64,000 nt of DNA from Acidimicrobiia bacterium. GTDB lineage: Bacteria; Actinomycetota; Acidimicrobiia; Spongiisociales; UBA5794. The translations under genes were made by a program, and so were the position numbers. Position 1 is the first letter of the stretch; every line of letters starts with the position of its first letter. Under the pieces are notes generated by a model. The model ran no database searches. It saw only the letters and a program-made list of their open reading frames with translations, and was not told the DNA's origin. The stretch lies in assembly GCA_041605955.1 (NCBI GenBank), contig JBFIXI010000006.1, forward strand, positions 26,853 through 90,852. Reading direction: 5' to 3'. Positions 13,489 to 62,101 of the stretch are shown here, piece by piece.

Positions 13489-13497
13489 GAGACGACA

Positions 13498-24285: not shown

Positions 24286-25071
24286 ATGCCAAGCGATCCG
24301 GCTCTCGCTCGCCAGGAGATGGACGGCCTGCTGCGCGGCGGCCGTCTGACGTCATACGATCCGAGCTGGTTCGATTACTGCGGCCAGACGCTGACGCCCC
24401 ACCACATCGAATCGGTCTTGGCGCCGTTCCTGTCGCCGGAGCGGGTGGCGAGGATCGACGCAGCGCTGGACAACCGAACCTACAACTTGAGTGTGGTCGT
24501 GGACGGGATGGTCGACACGGGCAACGTCGCCGCCGTGATGCGGTCCGCCGACGCCTTCGGCGTCCAGGCCTTTCACGCCATCGATCGGGCCGGGAGCTAC
24601 AAGCATTCCAGACGCACGTCCCAGGGCGTGCGTAAGTGGGTCGACCGCTGGGTGTGGCGTGACCCTGAGGACGCCATCGCCGCGTTGCGTGCCCGCAACT
24701 ACCGTATCGTCGTGGCCGATAGTGAGGGCGGCACCCCGTTGGAGGCCGTCGACTTCAGTCGTCGCACCGCCCTCGTGTTCGGGAACGAGCTGGAAGGAGT
24801 GAGCGCCAGCTTGCGGGCCGCAGCCGCCGAGATCACGGCCATCGAGATGTCCGGGTTTGCTCGGTCGTTGAACATCTCCGTGGCGGCCGCAGTATGTCTC
24901 CACCAGGCACGGCGCGATCGAGTTGCGCGGCTGGGGCGTCATGGCGACCTGAGCGACGGCGATCGGGAGCGGCTGCGTGCGGTGTTTGCGATCAAATCGG
25001 TGCGGCATGCCCGCCAGATCATCGAGCGGGCAGTGGCCGAGTCGAGCAGCGCTTCCGGGCTCACGGGTTGA
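24286..25071 (+). CDS. SpoU/TrmH family RNA 2'-O-methyltransferase
   Basis: SPOUT fold motifs (LVFGNELEGVS, SLNISVAAAV). Confidence 0.7.
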   Translation: MPSDPALARQEMDGLLRGGRLTSYDPSWFDYCGQTLTPHHIESVLAPFLSPERVARIDAALDNRTYNLSVVVDGMVDTGNVAAVMRSADAFGVQAFHAIDRAGSYKHSRRTSQGVRKWVDRWVWRDPEDAIAALRARNYRIVVADSEGGTPLEAVDFSRRTALVFGNELEGVSASLRAAAAEITAIEMSGFARSLNISVAAAVCLHQARRDRVARLGRHGDLSDGDRERLRAVFAIKSVRHARQIIERAVAESSSASGLTG

Positions 25072-26089
25072 GCGGGGTCACCTGATTCAGCGGTTTATCG
25101 GCGCCCTCGGACAGCGTGACGTATGTCAGCTCGCCGGGGACGAAGGTGAGCGCCTCACCTTGGATCTCGTCCGGGCTCGGCCCCAGACACGGCTCGGTAG
25201 CCAACGTCTGTTCGTAAGCGAGGTCGGTGCGCGCCCACATCCACACGTGGGAGTAGCCACGTAGCGCCAGCACCGTGCCGTCGCTCGTCACATCGGCGGC
25301 TGTCACTGCTCCGTCGCCCGCCAGGCGGAGCCGAGCGACCTCCGTCATCGGCGTCGGTCGTGAGCTTTGCAGCGCGTCCACTGGAGCCCGAAAGACCACT
25401 GCGGGCTCGCCGGCCGGCGGCTTGGTCACCACGAAGACGTCGCCGGTGATCGGATCCACCCAGAACGCTTCGGAGTCCACGGCGGAATCCGGATAGGTGA
25501 GGCGAATCGTGGCGATGTCTGAGATCATCGCCGGTGGGTCGACCAAGTCGGGCTCGGGGAAGCGAAGCAAGCTGATGGTGCGCCGCAGCCGGAGGTTGTC
25601 GCCGATGTCTCCGATGTAGACGTAGCTGACTCCCGGCTCGGGGCCGGGGCCAATCGCGATGTCCTCCCAGTCGAAGCCGACCGTCCCCGCCAACTCGAAC
25701 GAGCCCAGCTGGTCGCCGGCCGGGCCCACCGCGTGGAGGACCGCACGGTTGCCGGAGTCATTGACCACCCAGTACGCGGGCCGGCGGCGACTGGCGGCGA
25801 TGCCCGATGCTTCTCGGATCTCGTCGCTGGAGACGATCCCCAGCTCACGAGTAGCGGGGTCGTACAGATCGCAAACGGTTCCCTCGCCGACGGCCGGCCC
25901 GGGCGGGAGCTCCGCTGTCGTGGTCGAGCCGACCGTAGGAGCCGCCGTGGCCGACGCCGCGGGCAAGGGCTGCAATGGTGAGGGGACATCATCGAGGCGA
26001 GCGGCGCCGCCCGACTCGGGCGGCACGCATCCCGCGACGAGCAGGACAGCGGTTCCGGCCACTGCGGCGATCACGAGTCGTCGGCCCAT
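25061..26089 (-). CDS. secreted lipoprotein, unknown function. Paralogous to the N-terminal domain of the RTX-repeat protein at 47178-48800.
   Basis: Signal peptide with lipobox LVAGC. Shared motif blocks (FxxExIAIGPGPxPG..YxYxxDxGDN, VDPxTGxxFxV) with the 47178 ORF. Confidence 0.6.
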   Translation of the reverse strand: MGRRLVIAAVAGTAVLLVAGCVPPESGGAARLDDVPSPLQPLPAASATAAPTVGSTTTAELPPGPAVGEGTVCDLYDPATRELGIVSSDEIREASGIAASRRRPAYWVVNDSGNRAVLHAVGPAGDQLGSFELAGTVGFDWEDIAIGPGPEPGVSYVYIGDIGDNLRLRRTISLLRFPEPDLVDPPAMISDIATIRLTYPDSAVDSEAFWVDPITGDVFVVTKPPAGEPAVVFRAPVDALQSSRPTPMTEVARLRLAGDGAVTAADVTSDGTVLALRGYSHVWMWARTDLAYEQTLATEPCLGPSPDEIQGEALTFVPGELTYVTLSEGADKPLNQVTPLNP

Positions 26090-26127: not shown

Positions 26128-27480
26128 CTACGGGTTCGCCGAGCTGAGAGTCCCCAGCAGCCGCAGGGCAATTGCTTCGGCGATCGTTCCCCGGCGGAGC
26201 TCGTCGAGATCCTGACTCTCATTGGGGCCGTGGGCTGCACTGGTGGGATCGCCAACGCCTGTGAGCAGCATGGCGGCCTCGGGAAACATGTCGGCGAAGG
26301 CGGCAACGAAGGGGATGGAGCCCCCTTGACCGATCTCGAGGGGCTCGCGGCCCCAGGCCACCGAGAACGCCTGTCGGAATGCGTCGTAAGCCGCTCCATT
26401 GGTCGCCAGGTCGACAGCGGCGCCTTCACTGCCTGGGGTGACGCTCACCTGGGCTCCCCACGGAGCATGGGTTTCGAGATGGGTGCGTAGCGCCTCCATG
26501 GCTCGAGTCGGGTCGTCTCCCGGCGCCAATCGCAAGCTCACCTTGGCGCGGGCGGCCGGTACTAGTGCATTGATCGCATGTGCCACCGGCGGTGCGTCGA
26601 TTGCCAGGACGGAGATTGCCGGCTGGCGCCACATTCGTTCGGTGATGGCTCCGGTCCCGATGAGGCGCAGGCCGTCTACGGCGCCCACTTGGCCCAGCAG
26701 CTCCTCGGCAGCCAGGTCGATGGGTGTCGTCCCGCCCGAGACGAGGCCGGTCACAGCAACCGCGCCGCGATCATCGTGCAGGGTTGCCAGCAATCGGCAC
26801 ATTGTCGTCAGCGCGTCGGGAACCGGGCCGCCGAAGCTCCCGCTGTGGACGGCCGCCGCCAGGGTCCGTACCTCGACCACACAGTCGACCAAGCCCCGCA
26901 GACTCACGGTGAGAGCCGGTTCGCCGACTCGCCAGTTGGCCGAATCGGCGATGACGATGGCATCAGCTGTGAGCTGTTCTTGGTAGGCGCTCAGGAAGTC
27001 GCCGAGATGGCGGGAGCCGATCTCCTCCTCGCCCTCGATGAAGACCTTGACCCCGACGGGTGGTCTGCCGCCGTGCGCCCGGATGGCGCCGAGGTGGAGC
27101 GCGATCCCGGCTTTGTCGTCGGATGTGCCCCGGCCGTAGAGCCGCCCGTGGCGCTCGGTGGGCTCGAACGGAGGTGACTCCCACAGCTCCTCGGGGCCTG
27201 GGGGCTGCACGTCGTGGTGGGCGTAGAGCAGGATGGTGGGCGCTCCCGGTGGGGCCGGGATCTCACCGAATACGGCAGGATGGGCACCGTCGAGCTCCAG
27301 CAACTGAACATCGGCGAGACCCTCGTCTTCGAGCAGCTCTCGAACCGCTTCGGCGGACCGGCGCACCTGGTGACTGTCGAAACCGGGGGCACTGATGGAC
27401 GGAATGCGCACCAATGACTCGAGGTCGGCCCGAATACGATCGAAGCCCTCATCGACGGCGGAGGTCAGGTCGTGATGCAT
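26128..27480 (-). CDS. M20 family metallopeptidase (dipeptidase/ArgE/DapE-like)
   Basis: Conserved [18 protein letters not shown] and EGEEE motifs. Confidence 0.8.
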
Positions 27481-29133: not shown

Positions 29134-30846
29134 TCAATCCTCGCGGTCGCTGAGCTCGACGTACTCGCCCTTGGGCACGGCGACGCGTGCGATCCGACGT
29201 GTGTAGTAGTAGATGCGGCGGAGGTTGGCGATGACGTCGGTCTCGAGCCGATACGTGGCTACTCGCTCCGGCGCCTCCGTCGAGAGTCGTCCCGCTTGCC
29301 TGGCCGCTGCGCTCCGTTCCAAGCTGTTGATCTGCTTCTTCATCTTGATGGCACGACGCGCCGAATCCGGATCCTTGTCCGTCAGGGCTGCGATGGACAG
29401 TTGGAGCGCCTCCAGCACGGCGCTGTGCACCTCGGAGAGGACCTCGATCGCTTCGTCGGTGACTGCGAGGTTCTGCTCGACCCGCCCGAGGCCCAGCCCA
29501 ACCAGGTTGGTTTCGATGACGTCGCCGATCGCTTCGAGGTTGTTGGTTGTGGCGATCATGCTGAAGAGCTCATCGGCGGCGGCGTCGTTGAGGCGATTCA
29601 TGCCGATCTTCCCCAAGAAGTCGATGATCTGGGCATGCAGGCTGTCGACCTCGGCGTCTCCCTGCTCGATCTCGAGCAATGTCCACCGTGTGCCCCTGAC
29701 CAGGGCGGGGAGCACCTCGATCAGCATCGTCTCTACCCGGCTCGCCATGCGCAGTATCTCCAACCGGGCCCGATCCAGAGCCAAGATTGGGGTGCGCAAG
29801 AGGGTCTCGTCGAGATACTTGAGACGGATCAGCTCGTCCTCATCGCCGGGACGGTTCGGGACGATCCGATATACCAGCTTGGCGATCCGCGTGGTAAACG
29901 GCAGGAAGATCACCGCGTTGGCGATGTTGAATATGGCGTGGGCGTTGGCGATCTCACGGGCGGTGCCTCCTCCGATGGACGACACGACGTTGACGAGCAC
30001 GGCCAGCAAGGGCAGCCACAGCACGACACCGCCCACGTTGAACAGCACGTGGGCGGCCGCCGCCCGCATGGCGTCGCGCGGCTTGCCGAGCGCCGCCAGA
30101 ATCGCGGTGATCGCCGTGCCCACGTTCGCGCCCAACACCAGGGCCAGGCCCGTCTCGATGTTGATCAGCCCTTGCTGTGCCAGGACGATCACGATGCCCG
30201 TCGTAGCCGACGACGACTGCACGACAGCGGTGAACGCCGCTCCGACGAGTATGCCGAAGAACGGATTCTCGAGCCGAGCCATTATGTCGAGAAACGCATC
30301 CGAGCCACGGAGTGGCGACATTGCATCGCCCATCACGGTCATCCCGTAAAAGACCAGGCCGAGCCCGAGCACCACGAGGCCCTGGGTGCGACGCTTCTCG
30401 GATCTGGCGAAGAAGCTGATGCCGAAACCCACCGCGACCGCAACGAGAGCCACTGTGGAGACGTTGAAGGCGATGATCTGAGCCGTGACCGTCGTGCCGA
30501 TGTTCGCTCCGATGATGACCCCGATGGACTGCTGGAACGTCATCAGCCCGGAGGTGATGAACCCGACGACCAGCACGGTTGTGACCGACGATGACTGGAT
30601 GAGCGCGGTCAGGCCCGCCCCGGTGAGCAACCCCACCAGCGGCCGGCCGGTGAGTTGTAGCAGCACGGTGCGCATCCGATCGCCGGCGATGAGGCGCAGC
30701 GACTCGGTCATGCGCTCCATGCCGAGCAGGAAGATGGCCAGCCCGCCGAGGAGACCGACGATCAGGAGGAAGGTGTCGATGTCTTCGGCAGCACCAGAGG
30801 TGGTTTCTGCGGCTGCGATGAGTCCTGGGATGTTGAGGATCGGCAC
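29134..30846 (-). CDS. Na/Pi cotransporter family protein with C-terminal PhoU-like domain
   Basis: Duplicated Na/Pi-cotransporter repeats (LLGMERMTESL) and PhoU-like helical repeats. GTG start chosen near the first TM, and it is uncertain. Confidence 0.7.
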   Translation of the reverse strand: MPILNIPGLIAAAETTSGAAEDIDTFLLIVGLLGGLAIFLLGMERMTESLRLIAGDRMRTVLLQLTGRPLVGLLTGAGLTALIQSSSVTTVLVVGFITSGLMTFQQSIGVIIGANIGTTVTAQIIAFNVSTVALVAVAVGFGISFFARSEKRRTQGLVVLGLGLVFYGMTVMGDAMSPLRGSDAFLDIMARLENPFFGILVGAAFTAVVQSSSATTGIVIVLAQQGLINIETGLALVLGANVGTAITAILAALGKPRDAMRAAAAHVLFNVGGVVLWLPLLAVLVNVVSSIGGGTAREIANAHAIFNIANAVIFLPFTTRIAKLVYRIVPNRPGDEDELIRLKYLDETLLRTPILALDRARLEILRMASRVETMLIEVLPALVRGTRWTLLEIEQGDAEVDSLHAQIIDFLGKIGMNRLNDAAADELFSMIATTNNLEAIGDVIETNLVGLGLGRVEQNLAVTDEAIEVLSEVHSAVLEALQLSIAALTDKDPDSARRAIKMKKQINSLERSAAARQAGRLSTEAPERVATYRLETDVIANLRRIYYYTRRIARVAVPKGEYVELSDRED

Positions 30847-30986
30847 GACTGGGCGCTCATTCGTCGGTTGCGGGGACGCATTGTGCCGCGGTGCTGCGCA
30901 GAACGCAGATTCTTCTCGATACCTCAGCCGGATGAGTTCGATCCGAGCTCTGCGCTTGCCGGGCTCCCCCAGCCAAGGGGGGCGGT

Positions 30987-31595
30987 CTATGCCTCGGTGT
31001 CGAGCAGGTTGAGGCCAGGGCTGGGATCGGCGTCGAGAGGTTCGAGTGTGATCCACAGCCGGGGATAGTCGGCTCGCCGCACTCCGACCCACAGTGTCAC
31101 ATCGGTCGGGTCGGTGAAGGTGCCGGCCGACACATGCACCGGGCCTTCGGTGAACCAGAGCTCGTAGACGTGTCCGGCAGGAGCGGGGTCGAGGCCGGAG
31201 ACGTCGAGCCGGAGCCGCGTTCCTGAGGCCTCATTCCATCCCCGCACCGCAGCTTCAACTCCGGGAGCGTTCTCCGTGGCTGCCAGAGCGACCTCCCAAT
31301 CGGGTCCATCGACTCGCCAGGTGGCGATCGCGAGCAGCGCCACGATGGCGGCCGCAACTGCTGCCGGCACCAGCCAGGGGCGGCGTTTGCCCGCCGCCGC
31401 ATCGAGCACGGATATCGAAGCTCCCGCCGGGCCGGCGCTGATTGCCTCCATCACGGATGCCTCGACCCCGGCGCGGGGCTCAACCCAGAAGGCGTCGTCG
31501 CTCAGATCGAATGTCAGCAACTCGTCGACCCGATCACGGGCGTCGGCAAGCTCGTCGTCGCTTGGGATATGGGGCGTGTGCTCTTGATCGCTCAT
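30987..31595 (-). CDS. anti-sigma factor (RskA-like, single TM)
   Basis: Start overlaps the sigma-gene stop (ATGA). TM helix plus a C-terminal domain with a VYELWF motif that resembles RskA. Confidence 0.6.
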   Translation of the reverse strand: MSDQEHTPHIPSDDELADARDRVDELLTFDLSDDAFWVEPRAGVEASVMEAISAGPAGASISVLDAAAGKRRPWLVPAAVAAAIVALLAIATWRVDGPDWEVALAATENAPGVEAAVRGWNEASGTRLRLDVSGLDPAPAGHVYELWFTEGPVHVSAGTFTDPTDVTLWVGVRRADYPRLWITLEPLDADPSPGLNLLDTEA

Positions 31596-39528: not shown

Positions 39529-40680
39529 ATGATCGCGTTGACCGAAACCAAGCGTCTGGCGCTGTGGCCGCTGGGCCTCGTATCCCTCGGACTGCTCGGC
39601 TACCTAGCCGAGGGGGCGTTGCCGCGAGCAGTGTTGACCGACGACGCCCGGATCTACTTCGAGCGGGTGACGCCGATCCTCGACGGCAAGCTGCCATATG
39701 TCGACGTGTTGTTCGAGCACTTTCCGCTGGCGCTGCCGCCGATGTTGGTGCCCCGGTTGGTACCCGGCGGGGATACGACGCTGGTCTACACCGCGCTGTT
39801 CGGGTTGCTGATGCTGGCCTGCCTCGTTGCAATCGGCGCCGTTGTGGGTCGAGTAGCCGCCGCCGCCGGGGTCACCCGCGGGGCATCCCAATGGGCGCTG
39901 CTGACGGCGCCGCTGGTTCCGTTCGTCGCCTACCGCAACGATCCGGTGGCCACGCTGCTGGCGGTGGCCGCCTTCTACTACTCCTTCGTGGTCTCGAGCC
40001 GGGCCGGCCCGGTGACCGCGCTGGCAGCCATCGCGGCCAAGGGTTGGCCGCTGGTGCTGGCTCTCGCCGAGTGGCTGGCCGGCCGTCGGCGGCGCGCCAT
40101 GCTGGTGGGGGGCTTCGCCGCCGTGCTCGGCGGGGTGCTCTTACTGACGCCCGGATTCCAGGAGGGGCGCGACTTCAGCGGCGTCCATTTGGAGACCATT
40201 GCCGGGTCGGGGCTGGTCTGGCTGCGCTCTGCGACCGGGGCAGACGCCGGAATTGCCATGGCGGCTGGAGCCATCTACGTATCCGCCCCGGCGGCGACCC
40301 TGCTGGTGGGGGTGGCGCTCGGAACAGCCACTGCGTGGTCGGCCCGGCCGGCGTTGACGGCGCCTTTCACCATCGGCGCCGCCGCCCGCCTGGTTGGTGT
40401 CGCCACTGCGGCGTTGCTCCTCGTCAGCCCCTTGTTCTCCGCGCAGTTCCTGCTCTGGCTGACGCCGTGGCTGCTGTTCTTCGGCGGTCGGACCCGCCGG
40501 TCCTTCCTGGTGGCCGCGACGATCACGCTGCTGCTGATGTCGTTGTGGGCCCCGACCAACCTGTGGTGGCAGAGCGGGCTGGTCATCCGCAATGGCGCCT
40601 TCCTCGCCATGGTGGTCCAGATGGCGCTCGAGATCCGGCAGCCCAGCAGCCGTGCCGTGCCGGCCGGCATCGTCCGCTAG
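39529..40680 (+). CDS. DUF2029 / GT87-like polyprenol-phosphate-sugar dependent membrane glycosyltransferase
   Basis: Polytopic membrane protein with an early conserved acidic loop (LTDDARIY). Confidence 0.55.
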   Translation: MIALTETKRLALWPLGLVSLGLLGYLAEGALPRAVLTDDARIYFERVTPILDGKLPYVDVLFEHFPLALPPMLVPRLVPGGDTTLVYTALFGLLMLACLVAIGAVVGRVAAAAGVTRGASQWALLTAPLVPFVAYRNDPVATLLAVAAFYYSFVVSSRAGPVTALAAIAAKGWPLVLALAEWLAGRRRRAMLVGGFAAVLGGVLLLTPGFQEGRDFSGVHLETIAGSGLVWLRSATGADAGIAMAAGAIYVSAPAATLLVGVALGTATAWSARPALTAPFTIGAAARLVGVATAALLLVSPLFSAQFLLWLTPWLLFFGGRTRRSFLVAATITLLLMSLWAPTNLWWQSGLVIRNGAFLAMVVQMALEIRQPSSRAVPAGIVR

Positions 40681-42718: not shown

Positions 42719-43510
42719 TCACGACGGGAGCTGCAAGGTGACGCCGCCGGAGTTGACCCGCGCCACATTGGTCGTTTGCGTGAAGCCACCGCCACTGCTC
42801 GCCGAGTCGGTGTTGCTGCATCCCCCGGCGTTGTAGTCCTGGTAGTTGGTGTCGACGGCCGTGACCCGATGCCACTCGCCGGCCACCGTGGCGAACTCGA
42901 GCTCGCTCCAGCGGATCGTCACGGGTGGGGCGTCGCACGCGGCGAACACCTCGGTCCACACGATGGGCGTGCCCAGCCCGTCGCCGCCGCCCTCCAGCTC
43001 ACGAATCACTGCAAGGGCGCCCGAAGCGACGTCTTCGATGCTGCCCCGCCACCAACCGACGTCTGCGCCGGCATCGATCGTGAGCCGGTACCGCCGGCCT
43101 GCTTCCCAGGGATAGTCGCGCGTGTTGGGGTCGTTGGGCTGCGACGGCAACGTCGACTCGGTTCCGGGGAGCTCGTCTCCTCCCAGCCGTTGGGCGCGGT
43201 ATCCGCCCCAGTTGACTGCGGTGTTGCCCGGATGACGCCGGTTCCACTGGATCCCCACGTGACCGCCGCCCACCTCCTGACCCCGATCGAGGAACGAGGC
43301 CTGCAGCGCGAAGAAGTAGAGGTCGGTGGTCGCCGGGGGAGCAACGACCTCCACTGTGACGCGCACTGCGGCCACGACGCGCGGCGCCCCCTGCCAGTAC
43401 AGGTGGAAGGACGACGCTCCGTTGGGCGAAGGGGGCCGGCCGCGGTCACGTACCCGGTCGACCCGGGAACTTCCACCGAGACCGAAGAGCCAGCGCAGAA
43501 AAGCGAGCAC
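42719..43510 (-). CDS. hypothetical protein
   Basis: Continuous 263-aa ORF with good codon bias and no recognisable motif. Confidence 0.4.
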   Translation of the reverse strand: MLAFLRWLFGLGGSSRVDRVRDRGRPPSPNGASSFHLYWQGAPRVVAAVRVTVEVVAPPATTDLYFFALQASFLDRGQEVGGGHVGIQWNRRHPGNTAVNWGGYRAQRLGGDELPGTESTLPSQPNDPNTRDYPWEAGRRYRLTIDAGADVGWWRGSIEDVASGALAVIRELEGGGDGLGTPIVWTEVFAACDAPPVTIRWSELEFATVAGEWHRVTAVDTNYQDYNAGGCSNTDSASSGGGFTQTTNVARVNSGGVTLQLPS

Positions 43511-46594: not shown

Positions 46595-46984
46595 TCAGGA
46601 CGCGTCTGACCCATCGTGCTGGTGTTCGTGCTCCTGCTCGATCTCCCGCCGCACCGAATCCATGTCGAGCGCCAACGCCTGGCCGATGAGATCCCGCAGC
46701 GCAGGCTCGGGAAGCGCCCCCGGCTGCGAGTAGATGCCGATCTGATCGCGGAAGATCATAAGTGTGGGGATCGAGCGAATGTTGAAGTAGCCCGCCAGTT
46801 CCTGTTGGTCCTCGGTGTCCACTTTGGCGAACACGATCTCGGGGTGGTCGGCCGCGACTTTCTCGAACGTCGGGGCGAACATCTTGCAGGGACCACACCA
46901 GTCGGCCCAGAAGTCGATGATCACCGTATCGTTGTTGACGATGGTGTCCTCGAAGGTGTCCTTGGTGAGCTCGACTGTTGCCAT
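46595..46984 (-). CDS. thioredoxin
   Basis: Canonical WCGPC active site. Acidic, His-rich C-terminal tail. Confidence 0.9.
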   Translation of the reverse strand: MATVELTKDTFEDTIVNNDTVIIDFWADWCGPCKMFAPTFEKVAADHPEIVFAKVDTEDQQELAGYFNIRSIPTLMIFRDQIGIYSQPGALPEPALRDLIGQALALDMDSVRREIEQEHEHQHDGSDAS

Positions 46985-47177
46985 ACGATTCCCTTTGCGA
47001 TTCGGCCCGATACGGGCAATGTTCCAACGACGTGGGGTTCGGTGACGCAACGCCGCGACCGGGTCCGGTATTCCATGACTAGTGACTTGATCGGCGGGGC
47101 GAATCCGCCTTCTGGTGGACCAGACACAGCTGGTACTATTCGTGGCAACTTCGACTACACCGGGTAGGGCCACGGAT

Positions 47178-48800
47178 ATGAAGCATTTGCTGCTCGGGCG
47201 CGCCATCACGGCCGGCGCGCTGGTCGCAGGCGCGTTGGCCACAATCGCCGCGCCGGCTCCGCCGGTCACCGCCGCTACCGGGTGCTTCACGGTCGAAGTC
47301 ACCAACGACCTGCGGATGGATGTCGCCGAGCTGGATGAGGCCTCCGGATTGGTGTTGTCGCGCCAGATGCCGGGGGTGATGTGGACCCACAACGACCACG
47401 ACCCCACCGCCACCAACGCGGAGAACAACCGGATCTACGCGGTCAACGAGGAGGGCGACCTGCTGGCGACGGTGCAATTCACCATGAGCCCGTCCGTACC
47501 GACCGTTCCCGATGCGACGTTCTTCGAGCTAGAGGACATCTCGTTTGGTCCGGGCCCCGACGGCGATCCCGACTACCTCTACCTGGCAGACACCGGCGAC
47601 AACCCTCCCGCTTCGAGGAGTTTCGCCAGCGTCTACCGCTTCGCGGAACCCGTCTTCGCTCCCGATCCCGCCAACCCGATCACGATCCAGATTCACGAGA
47701 CTCAGCTGGATGGAACTCGTTTCGAGTACCAGAGCTTCATCGACCCCGGCGAGACGAAACCGCGTAATGTCGAAGGCGTCTTCGTGGATCCGGCGACCGG
47801 CCACCTCTTTCTCGTTGAGAAAGGCCTGCACGCCATCGACGTCAACGGCGAGTTGGCGGACGGCACCGAGCTGCCCCGCGAGTACGCCTACATCTATCGA
47901 ATCGCAGCTAAACAGTTGTTTCCCCCTAATCCAGCGACGCTCCGGTTGGCGACCGTAGAGGGGTACGTCAAAGCCGAGTTCGGGGCCGGCGCGGTCGGCG
48001 TCACCGCTGCCGACATGGCGGCCGACGGCACGATCATCGCGATGAAGAACCGGGACGAGACGTTCTACTGGCACCGGGATCCCAACGAGACGGTGCTCGC
48101 CACGCTCAATCGAGATCCGATTGCCCCATGCCAGGCGCCAACCGGGATGAAGGGCGAAGGCCTCGCCGTCGGGCCGATCTCCGGGCGTCTGGTGATGATC
48201 CGCGAGGGCTTGCTGAGCCCCATCTGGCAGGCCGTCTTCACCGATCAGACCTATGAGTGCTTCGGTAGAGCGGCCACCATCGTGGGCACGGCGGGCGACG
48301 ATGTGATCACCGGCACCCCGGGCAACGACGTGATCGTGACCTTCGGAGGAGACGACACCGTGCTCGCCAAGAAGGGCTTTGACCGTATCTGTCTCGGTCC
48401 CGGCAACGACGCCGCCGACGGGGGGCTGCAGCGCGACAGGATCGACGGCGGCTGGGGCGACGACATCCTCGAGGGCAGTTACGGCCGCGACTTGCTGTGG
48501 GGGCGGGATGGCTGGGATGTGCTGGCCGGCAACGCCCACGATGACGTCATCTACGGAGGGGACGGCCAGGACACCATCACCGGTGGCGGTGGAATCGACA
48601 CGATCCTCGGGATGAACGGCGCCGACAGCATCTCCGGCCAAGCCGATGGAGATGTGCTCAAAGGGGGTCGGGGCGCCGACGATATCGGCGGCGGCAATGG
48701 CAACGACGCTCTCACCGGCGGAGCCGGCACCGACACCTGCGACGGCGGCGATGGTGTCGACACGGCCCAAACCTGTGAGCTGGTTAGGGGCGTTCCGTAG
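47178..48800 (+). CDS. secreted protein: N-terminal domain paralogous to the lipoprotein at 25061-26089, fused to C-terminal RTX-type calcium-binding nonapeptide repeats
   Basis: Signal peptide. The C-terminal ~180 aa are tandem GGxGxDxxx repeats (GGDGQDTITGGGGIDTILGMNGADSISG and further copies). Confidence 0.75.
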   Translation: MKHLLLGRAITAGALVAGALATIAAPAPPVTAATGCFTVEVTNDLRMDVAELDEASGLVLSRQMPGVMWTHNDHDPTATNAENNRIYAVNEEGDLLATVQFTMSPSVPTVPDATFFELEDISFGPGPDGDPDYLYLADTGDNPPASRSFASVYRFAEPVFAPDPANPITIQIHETQLDGTRFEYQSFIDPGETKPRNVEGVFVDPATGHLFLVEKGLHAIDVNGELADGTELPREYAYIYRIAAKQLFPPNPATLRLATVEGYVKAEFGAGAVGVTAADMAADGTIIAMKNRDETFYWHRDPNETVLATLNRDPIAPCQAPTGMKGEGLAVGPISGRLVMIREGLLSPIWQAVFTDQTYECFGRAATIVGTAGDDVITGTPGNDVIVTFGGDDTVLAKKGFDRICLGPGNDAADGGLQRDRIDGGWGDDILEGSYGRDLLWGRDGWDVLAGNAHDDVIYGGDGQDTITGGGGIDTILGMNGADSISGQADGDVLKGGRGADDIGGGNGNDALTGGAGTDTCDGGDGVDTAQTCELVRGVP

Positions 48801-48845: not shown

Positions 48846-49487
48846 GTGTCCAACCCTCCGCTCATCAGTCTCGACGCCGTTGCGGCGCGCGTCGGGTCGA
48901 CGACCATCCTGCGCGACGTGAGCCTCGAGATAGGTGCCGGTGAAGCGGTGGCGGTGTACGGCGCCAACGGCGCCGGCAAGACGACCCTGTTGCGGATCAT
49001 GGCCACCCTGCTCATGCCGTCTGCCGGCCGGGTTGCGGTATTCGACACCGATGCCGCCTCGCTCGATCGTTTCGAACTGCGCCGCCGCATCGGGATGATC
49101 GGCCACGTCCCTTCGCTGTACCCCGAGCTGTCGATGCGGGCCAACCTGGAATACGTGGCTGAAGTCGTCGGGCTCGATCGCGAGGCTGCCGAGAAGGCGC
49201 TCGCCACGGTGGGGCTGGCCGCGGCTGCCGACCGACCCGTAGAAGCCGCCTCGCACGGCATGCAGCGGCGCTGCGAGATCGCCCGCGAGCTGATGCGGGC
49301 GCCGACGATCCTGCTCCTCGACGAGCCACACGCCGCACTCGACACATCTGCGGTGGCTCTCGTGGAGCACCTCATCGCGACGGTCACCACTCAAGGAGGC
49401 TGCGCCGTTGTTGCCTCCCACAACCGCCACGAGGTTGACAAGCTCACCGGTCGTCAGCTGCATCTCGAATCGGGGACGCTGGTGTGA
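48846..49487 (+). CDS. ccmA: heme exporter ATP-binding protein CcmA
   Basis: Walker A GANGAGKTT and ABC signature. Operon context. Confidence 0.85.
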   Translation: MSNPPLISLDAVAARVGSTTILRDVSLEIGAGEAVAVYGANGAGKTTLLRIMATLLMPSAGRVAVFDTDAASLDRFELRRRIGMIGHVPSLYPELSMRANLEYVAEVVGLDREAAEKALATVGLAAAADRPVEAASHGMQRRCEIARELMRAPTILLLDEPHAALDTSAVALVEHLIATVTTQGGCAVVASHNRHEVDKLTGRQLHLESGTLV

Positions 49488-50161
49488 CCCGCTCGCCCGG
49501 TCTCCTCGCTCAGGCCCTGGTGGCCGCCAAGCGCGACTTGGCGCGGGAGCGCCGCCGGGGCGAGGTGCTCTGGGTGACGATCCCGTTCGGTGTGGTTGCC
49601 ATGCTGCTTATCCCGATGGCGGTGGGTGCCGACGTCCCCCGCCTGCGCGAGCTGGGCCCCGGGCTCTACTGGGTGGTCGTGCTGCTTTTCGGCATCCTCG
49701 TCACCGTGCGCGCCACCGCCGCCGATTCGCCCCAGCAGCGCGACCTGAACCGGCTCATCGGGCTCGACCCCGCTGCCGCCTTCGCCGGCAGGGCTCTGGC
49801 GAGCTTCGTGCTGCTGCTGGCGTTCGAAATCGTGGTGGGGCTGGCCACCATTGCGCTGTACGACGTCAGTCTGACCGGGTGGGTGCTACTGCCGGTCATT
49901 CTCGTCGTCGCCGGCGCCGGACTGGCCCTCATCGGCAGCCTGGCGGCGGCGATCGCAGCCAATCTGGCAACGGGCCCCGCCCTCGTCCCGCTGTTGGTGG
50001 CGCCCCTGGCCGTGCCCCTCCTGCTGGGTGCGACGCAGGCTCTGGAGGGGTTGCGAGCCGGCAACGGTATCCTTCCCTGGCTGGTCCTGATGATCACAGT
50101 CGTGCTCGTACTTCTGATCATCGGCGTTGTGACGGCAAGACCACTTCAGGAGACAGCATGA
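49484..50161 (+). CDS. ccmB: heme exporter protein CcmB
   Basis: 6-TM CcmB-like protein. GTGA start overlap with ccmA. Confidence 0.8.
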   Translation: MTRSPGLLAQALVAAKRDLARERRRGEVLWVTIPFGVVAMLLIPMAVGADVPRLRELGPGLYWVVVLLFGILVTVRATAADSPQQRDLNRLIGLDPAAAFAGRALASFVLLLAFEIVVGLATIALYDVSLTGWVLLPVILVVAGAGLALIGSLAAAIAANLATGPALVPLLVAPLAVPLLLGATQALEGLRAGNGILPWLVLMITVVLVLLIIGVVTARPLQETA

Positions 50162-50895
50162 GCCAACTTAGGGAGCGATGGGCGGCCGGCAGCTGGCTGG
50201 GTCGGCTGACGGCGCTGGCGATCGGCATCGCCCTGGTCTTGGCGTTCACCTCCCCGCGGGAGGTCAACCTCGGGCAGACCGCCCGCCTCTTCTATCTCCA
50301 CGTTCCCAGCATCGCGGTCGCTTATCTGGCATTCACGTTGACCCTCGTGGCGAGCGGCGCCTATCTAGTCACCAAGCGCATCAGGTGGGACCACTTGGCG
50401 GTGGCCGCGGCCGAGGTGGGGGCCGTCTTTACGGGGTTGACGATATTGGTCGGCATGATCTGGGCGAAGCCGACTTGGGGCGTCTTCTGGACATGGAGCG
50501 CTCGGCTGACCCTCACTGCCATCATGTTCTTCGTCTACCTGGGCTACCTGGCGTTGCGGAGGGCAATCATCGACCCCGAGGTGCGGGCACGACGGGCCGC
50601 CATCCTGGGAATCCTGTCGATCGTGCAGATCCCAATCGTGCACTTCTCGGTGATCTGGTGGCGTGATATTCATCAGCTGGGAACGATTGCGTCAGCGACC
50701 GGTATCCAGATGGACACCCCGCTGCTCGTCGCGTTCTACGCCGCGCTGGTCGCCTTCGTGCTGCTCGGTACCCATTTGGTGCTGCGGCGCCGCCGCCTGG
50801 CAGAACTCGAGTATCGACTCGAGACCAGCGATCCCGCAGTTGGGGTCGTTGCCGGCGATGCCGTCACCGCTCCTTTGCTCACGGGAGAAGCGTGA
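50158..50895 (+). CDS. ccmC: heme exporter protein CcmC
   Basis: WWD-domain-like region (WAKPTWGVFWTWSARL). ATGA overlap with ccmB. Confidence 0.85.
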   Translation: MSQLRERWAAGSWLGRLTALAIGIALVLAFTSPREVNLGQTARLFYLHVPSIAVAYLAFTLTLVASGAYLVTKRIRWDHLAVAAAEVGAVFTGLTILVGMIWAKPTWGVFWTWSARLTLTAIMFFVYLGYLALRRAIIDPEVRARRAAILGILSIVQIPIVHFSVIWWRDIHQLGTIASATGIQMDTPLLVAFYAALVAFVLLGTHLVLRRRRLAELEYRLETSDPAVGVVAGDAVTAPLLTGEA

Positions 50896-51023
50896 TGGGT
50901 GAGTGGGGTTGGGTCTTCGTTGGCTACGCCGCAATGATCGGTGCTTTGGCCGGCTATACGTGGTGGTTGCGCATTCGCCTCCGGCGGACGTCGCGCCGCA
51001 TCGAATCCAGCCGCATGCCATGA
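50895..51023 (+). CDS. ccmD: heme exporter protein CcmD
   Basis: 42-aa single-TM peptide with a basic C-terminus, sitting between ccmC and ccmE. Confidence 0.6.
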   Translation: MGEWGWVFVGYAAMIGALAGYTWWLRIRLRRTSRRIESSRMP

Positions 51024-51421
51024 CGCGTTACTGGCGTTTTCTGCTTCCTGCGGGGGCGGTGGTGGCGGTCCTGGTGTTGCTCCTGGTGACGCTCTCCGAC
51101 AACCTCGTCTATTTCAAAACGCCGACGGAGATCACGACCGAGGGTGTGGACCCGCAAGCGCGGCTTCGCCTCGGCGGCCAGGTTGAGGCCGGCACGGTGA
51201 GCGACACGACCGACGGGATCGCCTTTGCGGTCACCGATGGCCGGATGGCAGTGAACGTGATTCACCAGGGGGCGCCCCAGGAGCTGTTCCGGGAAGGCAT
51301 CGGAGTGGTGCTCGAGGGCAGCTGGGACGGCTCCGTGTTCCACTCCGACACGATGCTGATCAGGCACGACGAGCAATACCGCACCGAGGAGGGCGAGTAC
51401 AACCCTCCAGCCGAGGACTGA
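51020..51421 (+). CDS. ccmE: cytochrome c-type biogenesis heme chaperone CcmE
   Basis: TM anchor plus OB-fold. Heme-binding His in the motif LIRHDEQY. Confidence 0.8.
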   Translation: MTRYWRFLLPAGAVVAVLVLLLVTLSDNLVYFKTPTEITTEGVDPQARLRLGGQVEAGTVSDTTDGIAFAVTDGRMAVNVIHQGAPQELFREGIGVVLEGSWDGSVFHSDTMLIRHDEQYRTEEGEYNPPAED

Positions 51422-51424
51422 TCG

Positions 51425-53479
51425 GTGATCGCCGTCGCCGGCCTGTTGGCGATCCTGACCGCGCTCGGGGCCGCGGCCGTGCTTGCCAGCAGGGGTCTCG
51501 GCGCGGCGCACCGCGGCCACGTTGAGCCAGCCAGGCTGCTGACTCCGGCTGCGGTCATGGCGATTGCCGCCGTCTCTGCCTTTGCGATCCTCGAGCTGGG
51601 GATCCTGGCGCATGACTATTCGATCAAGTACGTCGCCAACACGACGTCGGACGCCACTCCACTGATCTTCCTGCTCGCCAGCGGATGGGCAGCGCTCGAA
51701 GGATCGATCGTGCTGTGGGGAATGTTGTTGGCGGCGTTCACCTGGCTGGTGGTGCGCCGCGTCGCCCCGGGCGATCGGATGGCGGCGGGCGCCGCCGGCA
51801 TCATTGCCCTGGTGGGTGTCTTTTGGTTCGGGTTGATGGCCTCCTTCGCCAACCCGTTCGAGGTGTGCACCGTCGCCGCGGAGGTCGGTTGCCAGGCCGC
51901 TTCCTGGTTCCCGCTGTCGGCTGCAGTAGCGCCGCTCGACGGCCTCGGGCCGAATCCGCTACTGCAGAACCACATCTTGATGGCCGTGCACCCGCCCCTG
52001 CTCTACATTGGGTACGTCGGTTTCACCGTTCCGTTTGCCTACGCGATGGCAGCTCTGTGGCAGCGGGAGACGGGGACCCGGTGGTTGGACATCACCCACC
52101 GCTGGTCGCTGATCGCATGGACGTTCCTCACGGCCGGCATTCTCCTCGGGGCGTGGTGGTCCTACGAAGTCCTCGGGTGGGGCGGCTACTGGGCATGGGA
52201 TCCGGTGGAGAACGCGGCCTTCCTACCGTGGCTGGTGGCGACCGCCTTCGTTCACTCCGCCGTCGTGCAGCGCAAACGCGGGATGTTGCAGGCATGGAAC
52301 ATCGTGCTGGTCATTGCCACCTTCGCGCTGACGATCCTGGGGACCTTCCTGACCCGCTCAGGGGTCATATTCTCCGTGCACTCCTTCACCCAGTCGGCGG
52401 TGGGTCCCATCCTGCTGGTCTTCCTGGGCCTGGTGGTCGTCGCCGGCTTCGGGTTGTTCGCGGTGCGCGCCGACGTCGTCGGCTCGGCGCCCCGCCTCGA
52501 CTCGTTGTTCAGTCGGGAGGGGACGTTCCTCGCCAACAACCTGCTGCTGACCCTCTTTGCCTTCACCGTGCTGCTGGGCACCATGTTGCCTCTGCTCATC
52601 GAAGCCTTCACCGGGAACCAGGTCACGGTGGGCCGGCCCTTCTTCGACCGGGCCGCCATCCCACTGTCATTTGCGCTGCTGCTCATGATGGGAATCGGGC
52701 CGGTGACCCCGTACCGGGTGGCCCGCGGCGACGTCGTGTGGGAACGGATCCGCCCGGGGATCGTCGGAGGCTTGGCCTTGGCGGCGGCTGCGGTCTTCGG
52801 CGGCGTCAGATCGGTTCCGGTGGTTGTCGCAGTTGCCCTGGCCGGCTTCGTCGCGGTCACCATCGGGCGTCACTTCTTCGAGAGAGTGAGGACGGTCAGT
52901 AGCCGCGGCATCTCGTGGGCGGGCGCGGCCGCCAAGGTGCTGGGCAACGAGCCCGGGTATTGGGGTGGCCAGATGTCGCACATCGGCGTGGCCCTAGTCG
53001 CCGTGGCCATTGCGGCCTCCTCGGGACTGGCCGTGCGCCAAACGGTGGAGCTCTCGATTCGGGAAACCGCGGTGGTGGACGACTACTGCGTCGGTTACCT
53101 CGGCCCGTTTGCGCGCAGCGAGCCCAACCGCATAGTCGAGGGCGCCGAGGTGGCGCTGCTGCGCGCCGACTGCAGTACCCCTATCCGGCTCATGCAGCCG
53201 CGGGTGCATCGCTATCCCAACGCGACGCAGGCAGTAGCCACCCCCGACGTCAGGACGGGTCTGGTGGAGGATGTCTATCTGTCGCTGTCGGGTATCACCG
53301 CCGAGGGAACCCTGGTACTGGAAGTCTTCGTCTTTCCATTGATGTGGATGCTGTGGTTTGGTGGTCTGTTGACCGCATTTGGCGGCTGGTACGCGTTGCG
53401 GGCCCGGCGCCGCGATCGGCCCGAAGCAGGGCCGCCTGATGCGGAGCCGGCACTGACGGCGAAGGTGCCTGCGGCGTGA
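51425..53479 (+). CDS. ccmF: cytochrome c-type biogenesis protein CcmF
   Basis: Large polytopic protein of 684 aa with the WWD region WGGYWAWDPVENAAFLPW. Confidence 0.9.
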   Translation: MIAVAGLLAILTALGAAAVLASRGLGAAHRGHVEPARLLTPAAVMAIAAVSAFAILELGILAHDYSIKYVANTTSDATPLIFLLASGWAALEGSIVLWGMLLAAFTWLVVRRVAPGDRMAAGAAGIIALVGVFWFGLMASFANPFEVCTVAAEVGCQAASWFPLSAAVAPLDGLGPNPLLQNHILMAVHPPLLYIGYVGFTVPFAYAMAALWQRETGTRWLDITHRWSLIAWTFLTAGILLGAWWSYEVLGWGGYWAWDPVENAAFLPWLVATAFVHSAVVQRKRGMLQAWNIVLVIATFALTILGTFLTRSGVIFSVHSFTQSAVGPILLVFLGLVVVAGFGLFAVRADVVGSAPRLDSLFSREGTFLANNLLLTLFAFTVLLGTMLPLLIEAFTGNQVTVGRPFFDRAAIPLSFALLLMMGIGPVTPYRVARGDVVWERIRPGIVGGLALAAAAVFGGVRSVPVVVAVALAGFVAVTIGRHFFERVRTVSSRGISWAGAAAKVLGNEPGYWGGQMSHIGVALVAVAIAASSGLAVRQTVELSIRETAVVDDYCVGYLGPFARSEPNRIVEGAEVALLRADCSTPIRLMQPRVHRYPNATQAVATPDVRTGLVEDVYLSLSGITAEGTLVLEVFVFPLMWMLWFGGLLTAFGGWYALRARRRDRPEAGPPDAEPALTAKVPAA

Positions 53480-54633
53480 GCCATCGGCTGCGCAAGTCGC
53501 TGTACGGCGGGCTGATCATCGGCCTGCTGGCCTTCATCGTGATTGGGCTGGCGCCCGGAGAGTCGGCCCCGGAAACCGACGCGGAGCGAGCTCATCGCAT
53601 CGCCAGCCAGCTGCGCTGCCCGTTCTGCAACGGCGAGTCCATCGCAGATGCCCAGTCGTCGATCGGCGCCGACCTGCGCGACCTCATCGACGAGCAGATC
53701 GCATCAGGCATGTCCGACGAGGAAATCTTCGACTTCTACGTGAGCGTCTACACGGATCGGGTGCTGCTGTTGCCCCCGTTGTTCGGCTGGGGAGCGCTGC
53801 TGTGGGTCCTACCCCTGGTCGTGTTGGGCGGCGGTGCGGTGGCGGTAGCGCGCCGTCGCCGGCCGCAGGTGGCCCCGTCAGAGCTGCCTTCTGCGGCCGC
53901 CTTGGCCGAAGCTCGCCGCACCGTGGCCGAAGACCTGCACGCAGTCGAAGTCCAGGCCGCTGCCGGAGAGCTGGCGGCCGCAGAGGCCGAGCGGCTGCGC
54001 GGCGTCTATGAAGCCGAGGCCGCCGCGCTGGATGCCGCCACAGTGACTGACCCACCGCCTCGGGAGCGGAGCCGCCGGCGCGTCGCAGCGGGTGCCGCCA
54101 TCCTCGTGCTGGGTGGGGCGGCACTGACGGTGGCGGTCGTGTTGACGGTGCGCGACCGGGCACCTGGAGACCTGGTGACCGGGGGGATCGCAGCCGAAGG
54201 GGCCGGACGTGACCTGTCCACGGTGACCAATGAGGAGATGGAACAGGTGGTCGCCGCCAACCCCGAAGTGATCCCGATGCGCCTGGCCCTCGCCGGCCGC
54301 TATTTCGAGGCGGGGGACTTCTCTGCAGCTCTGGGCCACTACATGGAGGTGTTGCAGCGCGAGCAGCATCCCGAGGCGCTCGCCAACATCGGCTGGATGA
54401 CCTATCTATCCGGTGAGGTCGAAACCGGCCTCGCGTTCGTCGAGCGATCCCTCCAAGTGACCGACGAACTGCCGCAGTCCTACTGGTACCTGGCCAACAT
54501 TCGCTACTGGGGTCTCGAAGACCCCGGCGGGGCCGTGGCACCACTCGAGACCCTGCTCGGCTTCGAGGCCATCCCGGAGGAGATCCGTTCCGCCGCTACC
54601 GAGCTTCTAGCCGAAGTGCAGGCTGCGCCGTGA
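53476..54633 (+). CDS. ccmH: CcmH (LRCxxC thiol-redox motif) fused to a TPR-containing CcmI-like domain
   Basis: LRCPFC motif at the N-terminus. TM segment plus C-terminal TPR repeats. Confidence 0.75.
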   Translation: MSHRLRKSLYGGLIIGLLAFIVIGLAPGESAPETDAERAHRIASQLRCPFCNGESIADAQSSIGADLRDLIDEQIASGMSDEEIFDFYVSVYTDRVLLLPPLFGWGALLWVLPLVVLGGGAVAVARRRRPQVAPSELPSAAALAEARRTVAEDLHAVEVQAAAGELAAAEAERLRGVYEAEAAALDAATVTDPPPRERSRRRVAAGAAILVLGGAALTVAVVLTVRDRAPGDLVTGGIAAEGAGRDLSTVTNEEMEQVVAANPEVIPMRLALAGRYFEAGDFSAALGHYMEVLQREQHPEALANIGWMTYLSGEVETGLAFVERSLQVTDELPQSYWYLANIRYWGLEDPGGAVAPLETLLGFEAIPEEIRSAATELLAEVQAAP

Positions 54634-55235
54634 AGGCGACATTGGCTCCTCGGCCTCATATCGGCACCTGGATCGCCGTGGGGGTGGGCGTGTTCGTGAT
54701 CGTGTTTGGGGCTGTCTTCGCCAACCGATTCGGACGCGACCCGGATCTGGTGGCGTCGCCGCTGATCGGACAGGCCCCGCCGGATGTCCGTCTGCCCTAT
54801 CTGGAGACCGAGGGAGACTTCGGCTTCGCCGACCTCAACGGCGACATCGTCGTCGTCAACTTCTGGGCATCGTGGTGTACCGGGTGTCGTGTCGAGCACG
54901 ATGCCCTGCTGGTGGCGGCGGACGCCTACCGGGACGCCGGGGTGTCTTTCGTCGGGATCTTGCATCAGGACCGCCCGACCACCGGCGTCCGGTTTCTCGA
55001 TGAGCTCGGTCGCGGAGAGCCCTATCGATATGTGGTCGACGAAGGATCCCGCGCCGGAATCGGGTTTGGCGTGCTGGGGCTGCCCACGACCTTCTTTCTG
55101 GACCGCACCGGGACAATCGTCGGGCAGGTCAACGGCCCGGCGACCATCGATGTATTGACCCGCACGCTCGACGCCATCCTGCTCGGCGGCACGGTCGATC
55201 CGATCACCCAAACAGGCGAGCTCGAGAATCGCTAG
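54630..55235 (+). CDS. ccmG: thiol:disulfide interchange protein CcmG/DsbE (TlpA-like thioredoxin)
   Basis: Signal anchor and a WCTGC active site. Last gene of the ccm operon. Confidence 0.8.
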   Translation: MKATLAPRPHIGTWIAVGVGVFVIVFGAVFANRFGRDPDLVASPLIGQAPPDVRLPYLETEGDFGFADLNGDIVVVNFWASWCTGCRVEHDALLVAADAYRDAGVSFVGILHQDRPTTGVRFLDELGRGEPYRYVVDEGSRAGIGFGVLGLPTTFFLDRTGTIVGQVNGPATIDVLTRTLDAILLGGTVDPITQTGELENR

Positions 55236-60979: not shown

Positions 60980-62101
60980 TCAGAGGTCGGGGGTCGCCTC
61001 TCGGGTGATCACATACGCTTCGTCGTTGAACCAGAGGCGGTCGTAGCGGCTCATCACGTCTCGGGTCGCCGCGAGGTAGCGACCTGAATCGATCGCCTCT
61101 GTGAGCCGGTCCTCGTCGATCTGGGCCACGTATGCGGCGGCATTCCAGGCCGCCAACACCGAGGAGGTTCCGATGTGCTCGGTCATCTCGGAAGGCATGG
61201 TGTGGAGTATGTACGGGAAGATGGCTTCCTCGTCGGGCACGTCATCGAACGATATGTCGGGGGCGACGCCGACATCGGCGAGGGCTTTGAAGAGATCGTG
61301 GCGGTTAGTGCGAAACGGGTTCTCGTCGGGCCAGACGTTGCGGATTATCTCCAGGGCGGGGTCGTTGCCGGCGGCGTGTATTCCGATGAAACGTCCTCCA
61401 GGCGCCAGCGCCGCCACCAGCGGGGCCACCACCATGCGCACCTTGGTCTCGGCGCTCGTGGCCGCCCGGTAGGGCTGGCTGGCAACGATCAGCTCGTATT
61501 CGATATCGGTCCCCCCGGGATGGGGAATGACATCGCGCAACAGGAACTCGCGGTCGTGGCGATAGATCACGTGCACTGCGGGCTGCACCGGTATCGGGTT
61601 GCCCGTCTTGGGGCTCGTCGTGACTTCCCAGTCGGCGGCGAACTGCAGGTGAAGCTTCTGCAGTTGCACGGCATAGTCATGGGCGGTGGCCCCCTCCAAA
61701 GCGGTGGTGCGCCACACCACGTCCTCATCGAGGAAGTTGCCCAGGTGGACTGCCTGGCGGTAGGGCATGTTGGTCACCACGAACACCAACTCCGGATGCT
61801 CGAAGAAGCGGTCGGGCATCGAGTCGACCGCCCGGCGGACGTCCTCGATCGATACCTCCTTGCCGACGATGAGCCATGGGACGTGGGTGAACACCTGGTG
61901 GAGGCGGCGCATGAGATGGATGAGCACGGTGGCGTCCCCCATGCCGGCGTCGAAGATGCGCAGCGCCTTGTCCTTTGGTTCCAGGTGCTGAAGCTCGCGG
62001 CTGACACGCTCCGCTACGGCCGCCTTCTCGTTCGTCGTGGTGACGAACATGTTGTAGGCGGCCCGGCTGTCAAAGAAGCGGTTGGGGGACTGCTCGGTCA
62101 C
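60980..62101 (-). CDS. putative class I SAM-dependent methyltransferase-like protein
   Basis: Motif I-like IFDAGMGDATV. The rest of the 373-aa protein is unassigned. Confidence 0.4.
   Translation of the reverse strand: MTEQSPNRFFDSRAAYNMFVTTTNEKAAVAERVSRELQHLEPKDKALRIFDAGMGDATVLIHLMRRLHQVFTHVPWLIVGKEVSIEDVRRAVDSMPDRFFEHPELVFVVTNMPYRQAVHLGNFLDEDVVWRTTALEGATAHDYAVQLQKLHLQFAADWEVTTSPKTGNPIPVQPAVHVIYRHDREFLLRDVIPHPGGTDIEYELIVASQPYRAATSAETKVRMVVAPLVAALAPGGRFIGIHAAGNDPALEIIRNVWPDENPFRTNRHDLFKALADVGVAPDISFDDVPDEEAIFPYILHTMPSEMTEHIGTSSVLAAWNAAAYVAQIDEDRLTEAIDSGRYLAATRDVMSRYDRLWFNDEAYVITREATPDL

Follow-up and report, generated by a model that had tools for sequence, protein, structure and literature searches.

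A stretch of 64,000 nucleotides from an Acidimicrobiia bacterium, an uncultured actinobacterium of marine type (GenBank assembly GCA_041605955.1, contig JBFIXI010000006.1, positions 26,853 to 90,852 of the forward strand) was analysed with regard to two exported proteins that share one domain. This whole stretch is called the window here. Protein A is encoded on the plus strand by an open reading frame (ORF) at 47178..48800 and comprises 540 amino acids (aa), counted from the ATG start codon. Lipoprotein B with 342 aa is encoded on the minus strand at 25061..26089. The shared domain is read as a five-bladed beta-propeller of an unnamed family. It is predicted to be lipid-anchored in B, and in A it is followed by an RTX beta-roll. 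Thus, one extracellular domain occurs in two topologies, as was supposed in an earlier note on this DNA.

For the ORF of protein A an upstream GTG at 47115 is a possible alternative start. The ATG is favoured because the orthologs have about 539 aa and an identical database protein (P0001) is available. Four parts were distinguished on the plus strand. The signal peptide (47178..47273, aa 1-32) starts with MKHLLLGR, continues with a hydrophobic core and ends with PAPPVTA, after which cleavage is predicted from the sequence. The AlphaFold model of A shows a helix at residues 3-24 and a low-confidence segment at residues 19-34. The propeller (47283..48242, aa 36-355) was delimited by the AlphaFold model and by homology to B. 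It is followed by the beta-roll (48273..48770, aa 366-531) and by a short, conserved C-terminal cap with the stop codon (48771..48800), which was recognized from the C-termini of the orthologs and the positions of the cysteines. The sizes of about 330 and 180 aa, which the earlier note had estimated for the two domains, are close to these boundaries. The cap consensus of the orthologs ends with C-E-D-V-T-G-V-P, protein A itself with T-C-E-L-V-R-G-V-P. The Cys pair C521/C533 is conserved in the orthologs, and six conserved cysteines are common to A and its full-length orthologs. The latter were found only in Acidimicrobiia and Acidimicrobiaceae metagenome-assembled genomes.

Three parts were distinguished for B, all on the minus strand. 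The lipoprotein signal peptide (26027..26089) contains the lipobox L-V-A-G-C at residues 17-21, with C21 as the lipobox cysteine. Lipidation is predicted from the sequence, as a lipobox of the pattern [LVI][ASTVI][GAS]C lies within the first ~35 residues. A flexible tether rich in Pro, Ser, Thr and Ala follows (25880..26026, aa 22-70). In the AlphaFold model, residues 20-70 show no secondary structure and a predicted local distance difference test (pLDDT) score of 46-69. The remainder is the propeller with the stop codon (25061..25879, aa 71-342), assigned by AlphaFold and Foldseek. The layout of lipobox plus linker is kept in the full-length orthologs of B, which carry equivalent lipoboxes.

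The homology of the shared domain was shown by BLASTP of A against B (E=8e-21, 30% identity, A51-351 with B90-336). All three motif blocks quoted in the earlier note are aligned. Structure models were calculated by AlphaFold2 with family alignments and reached a pLDDT of 87.3 and a predicted template modelling score (pTM) of 0.71 for A; for B, 89.4 and 0.82 were obtained. Both models contain about 20 strands, which are arranged as five sets of four. The domain is read as a five-bladed beta-propeller on the basis of these models, and the N-terminal strand probably completes the last blade. A search of solved structures by Foldseek with stand-alone B gave as top match 3qqz, the C-terminal domain of E. 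coli YjiK (E=2e-8). The TM-score was 0.67 when normalised to the target and 0.49 when normalised to the query, which holds about 70 disordered residues. The remaining matches listed for B were WD40-type or generic propellers with TM-scores of ~0.4 or lower. With full-length A only G-beta/WD40 chains were retrieved (TM-scores ~0.27-0.4). Any specific structural neighbour of A is masked because the beta-roll is present and WD40 chains are abundant in the PDB. The guess of a beta-propeller-like fold has thus been borne out.

By sequence comparison the shared domain could not be assigned to a described family, in agreement with the earlier note. No match to it was obtained in Pfam and NCBIfam for A and B at E<=1, and among the PDB sequences no propeller was matched by A (E<=1) or B (E<=10). 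Likewise, the family profile gave no match to a propeller of the PDB. A match to LpqN in the PDB searches was rejected as spurious; it was caused by the lipoprotein leader.

YjiK itself matches the Pfam families PF06977 ('SdiA-regulated') and PF13449 ('Phytase-like'). Neither of these was matched by A or B at E<=1, and the two proteins are not assigned to them. Among the 69 relatives of A and B that were compared, nine matched PF13449 weakly, the best with E=1.2e-3, and a single one gave a weak match to PF06977 (E=4.8e-4). For the relative P0349, PF13449 reached E=0.0028 and 18.1 bits, which is below the gathering score of 27.6 bits. An hhalign comparison of the family with a YjiK alignment of 14 sequences, which is of low diversity, gave a probability of 1.2% and E=0.044 with 199 columns in register. 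In this alignment all five blades are aligned and the acidic residues at the blade starts are paired. The probability was also about 1% with the single YjiK sequence. In summary of the similarities, YjiK and the shared domain have about 245-270 aa per propeller, the same fold (3qqz), an envelope or exported location and aligned Glu residues at the blade starts. In contrast, their identity is about 12%, and no significant sequence or profile match connects them. Furthermore, YjiK has neither the RTX tail of A nor the lipobox-plus-linker format of B. PF13449 proteins resemble the shared domain in being extracellular and in bearing Asp or Glu on their blades, but the matches of the family to PF13449 do not reach the gathering score in any case, and none at all was obtained with A and B. 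The shared domain is best described as a separate, unnamed family inside the known superfamily of YjiK/phytase-like propellers. New are the family and the architecture; the surrounding superfamily is known.

The C-terminal part of A is a true RTX beta-roll rather than low-complexity sequence, and the expectation of the earlier note on this point is supported by several lines of evidence. The Pfam model HemolysinCabind (PF00353) matched in seven stretches with E=2.5e-25 and 88.5 bits, compared with a cutoff of 23. Within residues 366-527, 18 nonapeptides follow one another without any break in the nine-residue register, and a partial nineteenth repeat extends to residue 531. RTX blocks of CyaA in the PDB match the tail at E=1e-17. 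In the AlphaFold model, strands of three residues are predicted at a spacing of nine residues between residues 376 and 531 (pLDDT ~90).

The module as a whole (48273-48800) has recognizable boundaries: it starts with 'C-F-G-R-A-A-T-I-V-G-T' and ends with 'D-T-C...C-E-x-V-x-G-V-P'. Two stand-alone RTX proteins with signal peptide from other Actinomycetota, P0070 (Virgisporangium) and P0093, have the same module boundaries as A; common to the three are 'C-x-G-x-x-A-T-I-V-G-T' at the start and 'D-T-C...C' at the end. Because the same capped module stands alone behind a Sec signal in these proteins, the sequences suggest that it is a distinct Sec-compatible ('Sec-type') beta-roll cassette.

A and all its full-length orthologs carry a Sec-type N-terminal signal peptide with an AxA-like site three to four residues before an invariant Cys; the comparison covered 26 orthologs. 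In A the signal consists of a basic N-region, a hydrophobic core and a cleavage site between VTA and A. The invariant residue, C36 of A, was considered as lipobox cysteine and rejected. In several orthologs E or P is found at position -1 and acidic residues lie just upstream; moreover, C36 aligns with the structural C73 of B and not with the lipobox residue C21.

RTX repeats are a hallmark of type I secretion substrates, and the earlier note had considered this route for A. Protein A would then be a classical RTX toxin or adhesin, exported in one step. NCBIfam models of RTX toxins and serralysins do match A; the matches are confined to the repeat region and lie far below the cutoffs of the models. 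Also, a gene for an ATP-binding cassette (ABC) ATPase follows 45 nt downstream of A. However, this gene is ccmA of a cytochrome c maturation operon and is followed by ccmB, C, E, F and H. Substrates of type I secretion were defined here by the lack of a cleavable N-terminal signal, by a C-terminal signal of about 50 or more residues and by cognate genes for ABC transporter, membrane fusion protein (MFP) and outer membrane factor (OMF). None of the three was found for A, the exporter genes being judged within the window. The conserved Sec signal is opposed to the first. As to the second, A ends 12-13 residues past the last repeat, and a similarly short tail is found in the orthologs; because only 12 residues follow the last repeat, no room is left for a C-terminal secretion signal. 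Genes for HlyD, TolC or a C39-type ABC transporter were not detected among the ~40 proteins of the window that were scanned with Pfam. In addition, the lineage is Acidimicrobiia, which belongs to a Gram-positive-type phylum, and a TolC-type outer-membrane channel is not expected in an actinobacterial lineage. Together with the occurrence of the capped module behind Sec signals in other Actinomycetota, these results make type I secretion of A exceedingly improbable, and this claim was abandoned.

Compared with the RTX proteins of Gram-negative bacteria, such as CyaA, HlyA, serralysins and LipA lipases, A has the same nonapeptide repeat and a predicted parallel beta-roll. For these proteins the calcium-dependent folding outside the cell is established. 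In contrast to them, A has a Sec signal, no C-terminal type I signal, no cognate ABC/MFP/OMF genes in the window, caps with predicted disulfides and an actinobacterial host. The architecture of A-type proteins is an example that an RTX beta-roll does not by itself identify a substrate of type I secretion, and an annotation that equates 'RTX' with a toxin of a type I secretion system would misfile A.

The propeller family is large and hardly annotated. A word-indexed search with B yielded 1,350 relatives. Among the 120 of them that were listed, no Pfam domain over the shared region was found, and those with a name were almost all called 'hypothetical protein'. A look-up of cluster names and taxonomy gave only 'hypothetical protein [Acidimicrobiia bacterium]'. 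In an exhaustive search with a hidden Markov model, which covered 1.84 billion cluster representatives, 15,072 protein clusters (counted at 50% identity) were detected at E<=1e-3 and 6,172 at E<=1e-30. The stand-alone domain of about 320-350 aa is the dominant architecture, with many thousands of clusters. Tandem members with two propellers (P0241-P0258 and others) have 560-850 aa, some of them with C-terminal Ig-like domains of the He_PIG/RibLong type. The combination of propeller and RTX module was seen in 26 clusters and in the clade of A only.

In an alignment of A-type and B-type sequences with 25-34% identity, the following residues are invariant (numbering of A): C36, S56, G57, N72, D73, E119, G124, D138, G140, N142, E199, D279, C318 and E327. 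Among the near-invariant positions are E54, D120, D141, R147, R154, E157, D204, K215, R300 and E343. Equivalent positions were recognized in the B family. A conserved disulfide of the propeller is predicted between C36 and C318. The residues E54/S56, E119, E199, D279 and E327 are each located at the start of the innermost strand of one blade, according to the predicted strands. The propeller also contains the loop G-D-x-G-D-N. By the usual topology of propellers, E54, E119, E199, D279 and E327 would be expected to ring one mouth of the central tunnel, where they would form, together with this loop, a metal site, probably for calcium.

Such an arrangement is known from calcium-dependent propeller hydrolases, in which acidic residues, contributed by the innermost strands of several blades, coordinate calcium where the tunnel opens and activate water or the phosphoester. 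CANT1/apyrase with five blades as well as PON1, DFPase, SMP30, beta-propeller phytase and PhoX with six blades are named here as an analogy of mechanism and not of membership. These enzymes showed no Pfam or PDB sequence match to the family and were absent from the 50 Foldseek matches listed. In particular, beta-propeller phytase (PF02333) and PhoX (PF05787) were not matched in the Pfam searches or in the PDB sequence and profile searches.

Further indications come from domain fusions. Of 66 long family members, three carry a Metallophos or purple-acid-phosphatase-like domain, one a SurE nucleotidase and one a GDSL esterase. A PF13449 protein of Nodularia, encoded in an operon with an adjoining metallophosphoesterase, belongs to the genes with the strongest induction under phosphate starvation (PMC9846622); this neighbourhood parallels the Metallophos fusions of the family. 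Because each blade has an acidic residue, fusions to Metallophos and SurE domains exist and phytase-like models match weakly, a hydrolase, and specifically a phosphoesterase, is proposed. In our judgement there is about an even chance that A and B are ancient Sec-exported paralogs in two formats whose propeller hydrolyses extracellular substrates in a calcium-dependent manner, phosphoesters being the most probable ones. It may supply substrates to phosphatases and nucleotidases or work alongside them. Sequence analysis and structure prediction support the domain architecture, the fold and the route of export; the metal site and the chemistry we infer.

The earlier note had suggested a sugar-acting or phosphoester-acting domain. 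Of these two, the role on phosphoesters has become the best hypothesis, supported by indirect evidence, and the glycosidase-like role has receded to a minor one. In the latter case the propeller would be a five-bladed glycoside hydrolase (GH) or another carbohydrate-active enzyme, resembling GH43, GH32, GH68 or GH62, with the catalytic Asp and Glu in the central pocket. Five blades with conserved Asp and Glu would agree with this, and two family members are fused to CBM96. The motifs W-x-x-N-D-S-G and V-D-P are loosely reminiscent of the GH32 boxes WMNDPNG and RDP, which is taken as a lead only. However, the ND motif closes the second strand of blade 1, whereas it is located in the first strand in GH32. 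No Pfam match to a GH family was obtained at E<=1 for A, B or the 69 relatives, and no GH propeller was among the 50 Foldseek matches listed, although many are contained in the PDB. A glycosidase is therefore considered improbable.

The principal alternative to a hydrolase is a non-catalytic module, similar to a lectin or adhesin, which tethers the cell or partner enzymes to a polymer or ligand. The acidic residues would then bind structural calcium or the ligand, with no chemistry involved. Most of the fusions in the 66 long members are to surface or adhesion modules, namely PKD (11 of 66), Ig-like, He_PIG/RibLong, SdrD_B, BACON, CBM96, dockerin and FG-GAP domains, and it is typical of binding modules, too, to be fused with enzyme domains. 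That this fold can serve as a lectin is demonstrated by tachylectin-2, which has five blades. Moreover, one family member of the Joint Genome Institute (JGI) bears the name 'adhesin HecA-like'. On the other hand, the dominance of the stand-alone domain does not suit a binding module, and about 14 residues, most of them charged, are invariant across 25-30% identity; such conservation is found more typically in active sites than in lectin sites. The tandem propellers do not settle this question. We regard a pure binding role as possible but rather doubtful.

Several points weigh against the proposed phosphoesterase. The sequence links to PF06977 and PF13449 are below threshold (1.2% with hhalign, under the gathering score with Pfam). 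In literature searches no experimentally defined activity was found for YjiK, PF06977 or PF13449, and for YjiK this also favours a binding module. The clustering of the invariant acidic residues is deduced from topology rules for propellers. Most of the domains fused to the propeller are surface modules without catalytic function, and the same pattern would result if the propeller were a binding module joined to phosphatases. Finally, no indication of phosphorus metabolism comes from the neighbouring genes, namely those of an M20 peptidase and a thioredoxin and the ccm operon.

According to the favoured reading, both proteins are exported by the Sec pathway, each carrying a YjiK-like five-bladed propeller. 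B would be attached by its lipid to the outer face of the cell membrane, with the disordered tether of ~50 residues in between. A would be cleaved by signal peptidase I and then either released or held in the wall. Its beta-roll, with 18 repeats and disulfide-bearing caps, most likely remains unfolded until it encounters calcium outside the cell. It would act as a folding and stability module and possibly retains A at the surface. More tentatively, and with clearly less confidence, the family might represent a very large undescribed group of extracellular calcium-dependent enzymes, perhaps a new class for phosphodiester cleavage or organophosphate scavenging, in which the A-type members possess a Sec-dependent, disulfide-capped and calcium-triggered beta-roll that serves Gram-positive-type bacteria for folding or retention outside the cell.

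If the proposed activity is true, a domain that occurs in more than 15,000 clusters would obtain a function; many of these clusters stem from Actinomycetota of sea and soil that have not been cultured. An unrecognised enzyme class might then have to be considered when the scavenging of nutrients outside the cell, probably of phosphorus, is modelled. The pair is of moderate interest for the size of the family, its lack of annotation and the occurrence of an RTX beta-roll on the Sec pathway of an actinobacterium.

Judged by their sequences, A and B are old, vertically inherited paralogs within the Acidimicrobiia and not products of a recent duplication or a simple fusion. The nearest relatives of the propeller of A without RTX module are tandem-propeller proteins (~E=1e-40) and not the orthologs of B. 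Because the propeller of A is not closest to the orthologs of B, A and B must have split long ago. The orthologs of A are found at 58-69% identity. The flanking genes, with 55-83% identity, are more conserved than A or B. This fits faster-evolving exported proteins in an inherited backbone.

A thioredoxin gene (46595..47023, minus strand; Pfam PF00085, E=3.5e-27) is divergent from A and is a conserved neighbour. Downstream, the System I cytochrome c maturation operon (48846..55235, plus strand) was assigned by Pfam and comprises ccmA, B, C, E, F and H and a CcmG-like redoxin. The order of a histidine kinase (HK) with PAS domain, thioredoxin on the minus strand, A and ccmABCEF is the same in all four loci examined (L001-L004), whose A proteins are 58-61% identical. 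On this basis A might be tied to cytochrome c maturation or to extracytoplasmic thiol redox reactions. A scan revealed no terminator-like site in the 45-nt gap between A and ccmA, which are on the same strand, and the six conserved cysteines of A could also be taken to favour such a link. However, all these loci come from one lineage with flanking genes of 65-83% identity, so the synteny may be inherited. A contains neither CXXCH nor another heme motif, and its paralog B and thousands of family members occur in unrelated contexts. No comparable protein is known to be part of a described Ccm system. The link to cytochrome c maturation or thiol redox is thus very unlikely, and no function was read into the adjacency of the ccm operon. 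The scan for promoters and terminators around A yielded no informative site. The complete System I ccm operon in an Acidimicrobiia genome is an observation of its own; the same operon is present in L001-L004, and to our knowledge most Actinomycetota use System II (ResB/CcsA type).

The gene of an M20 family peptidase (26128..27480, minus strand; Pfam) is located upstream of B with a gap of 38 nt and is also a conserved neighbour. No signal peptide was found in this peptidase, and the pairing with B persists in relatives down to 42% identity. In three loci, a relative of B with 42-48% identity is preceded by an M20 peptidase gene; the two genes adjoin in L046 and L049, and a single small ORF separates them in L048. 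The pairing could be due to co-transcription or to plain synteny. Gene context as a clue to function was set aside: the pairs of M20 peptidase and B and of thioredoxin, A and ccm are conserved only within one lineage of high synteny. A distant member of the family in Cloacimonadota adjoins a restriction-modification system, which is uninformative for the function. The locus of A and B is regarded as that of a conserved exported pair in a housekeeping context; nothing suggests a new kind of system.

On the strand of B, at a distance of 3 kb, lies a gene for a fusion of Na+/Pi cotransporter and PhoU (29134-31092). It is separated from B by the M20 peptidase gene and by an ORF of 272 aa whose only Pfam match, to TOM20_plant, is weak. 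With this distance and so weak a link, the gene does not support a phosphate connection for B.

Elsewhere in the window, four ORFs of 260-420 aa (11-1267, 39529-40680, 42719-43510 and 60980-62101) have a gene-like codon bias (GC content at third codon positions 0.83-0.88) and gave no Pfam match at E<=1e-4. Furthermore, the region 2791-14355 looks, according to Pfam, like a cluster for the demethylation of quaternary amines, e.g. glycine betaine. It comprises genes for the alpha and beta subunits of an electron transfer flavoprotein (2791-4508, minus strand), a DAO-GCV_T fusion resembling dimethylglycine or sarcosine oxidase (4505-7108, minus strand), a corrinoid B12-binding protein (7193-8074), a DUF1638 protein (8087-8719), a RACo-type corrinoid activase (9680-11953), an MttB-family methyltransferase (11950-13488; PF06253, E=2e-217) and a protein similar to methylenetetrahydrofolate reductase (MTHFR; 13498-14355).

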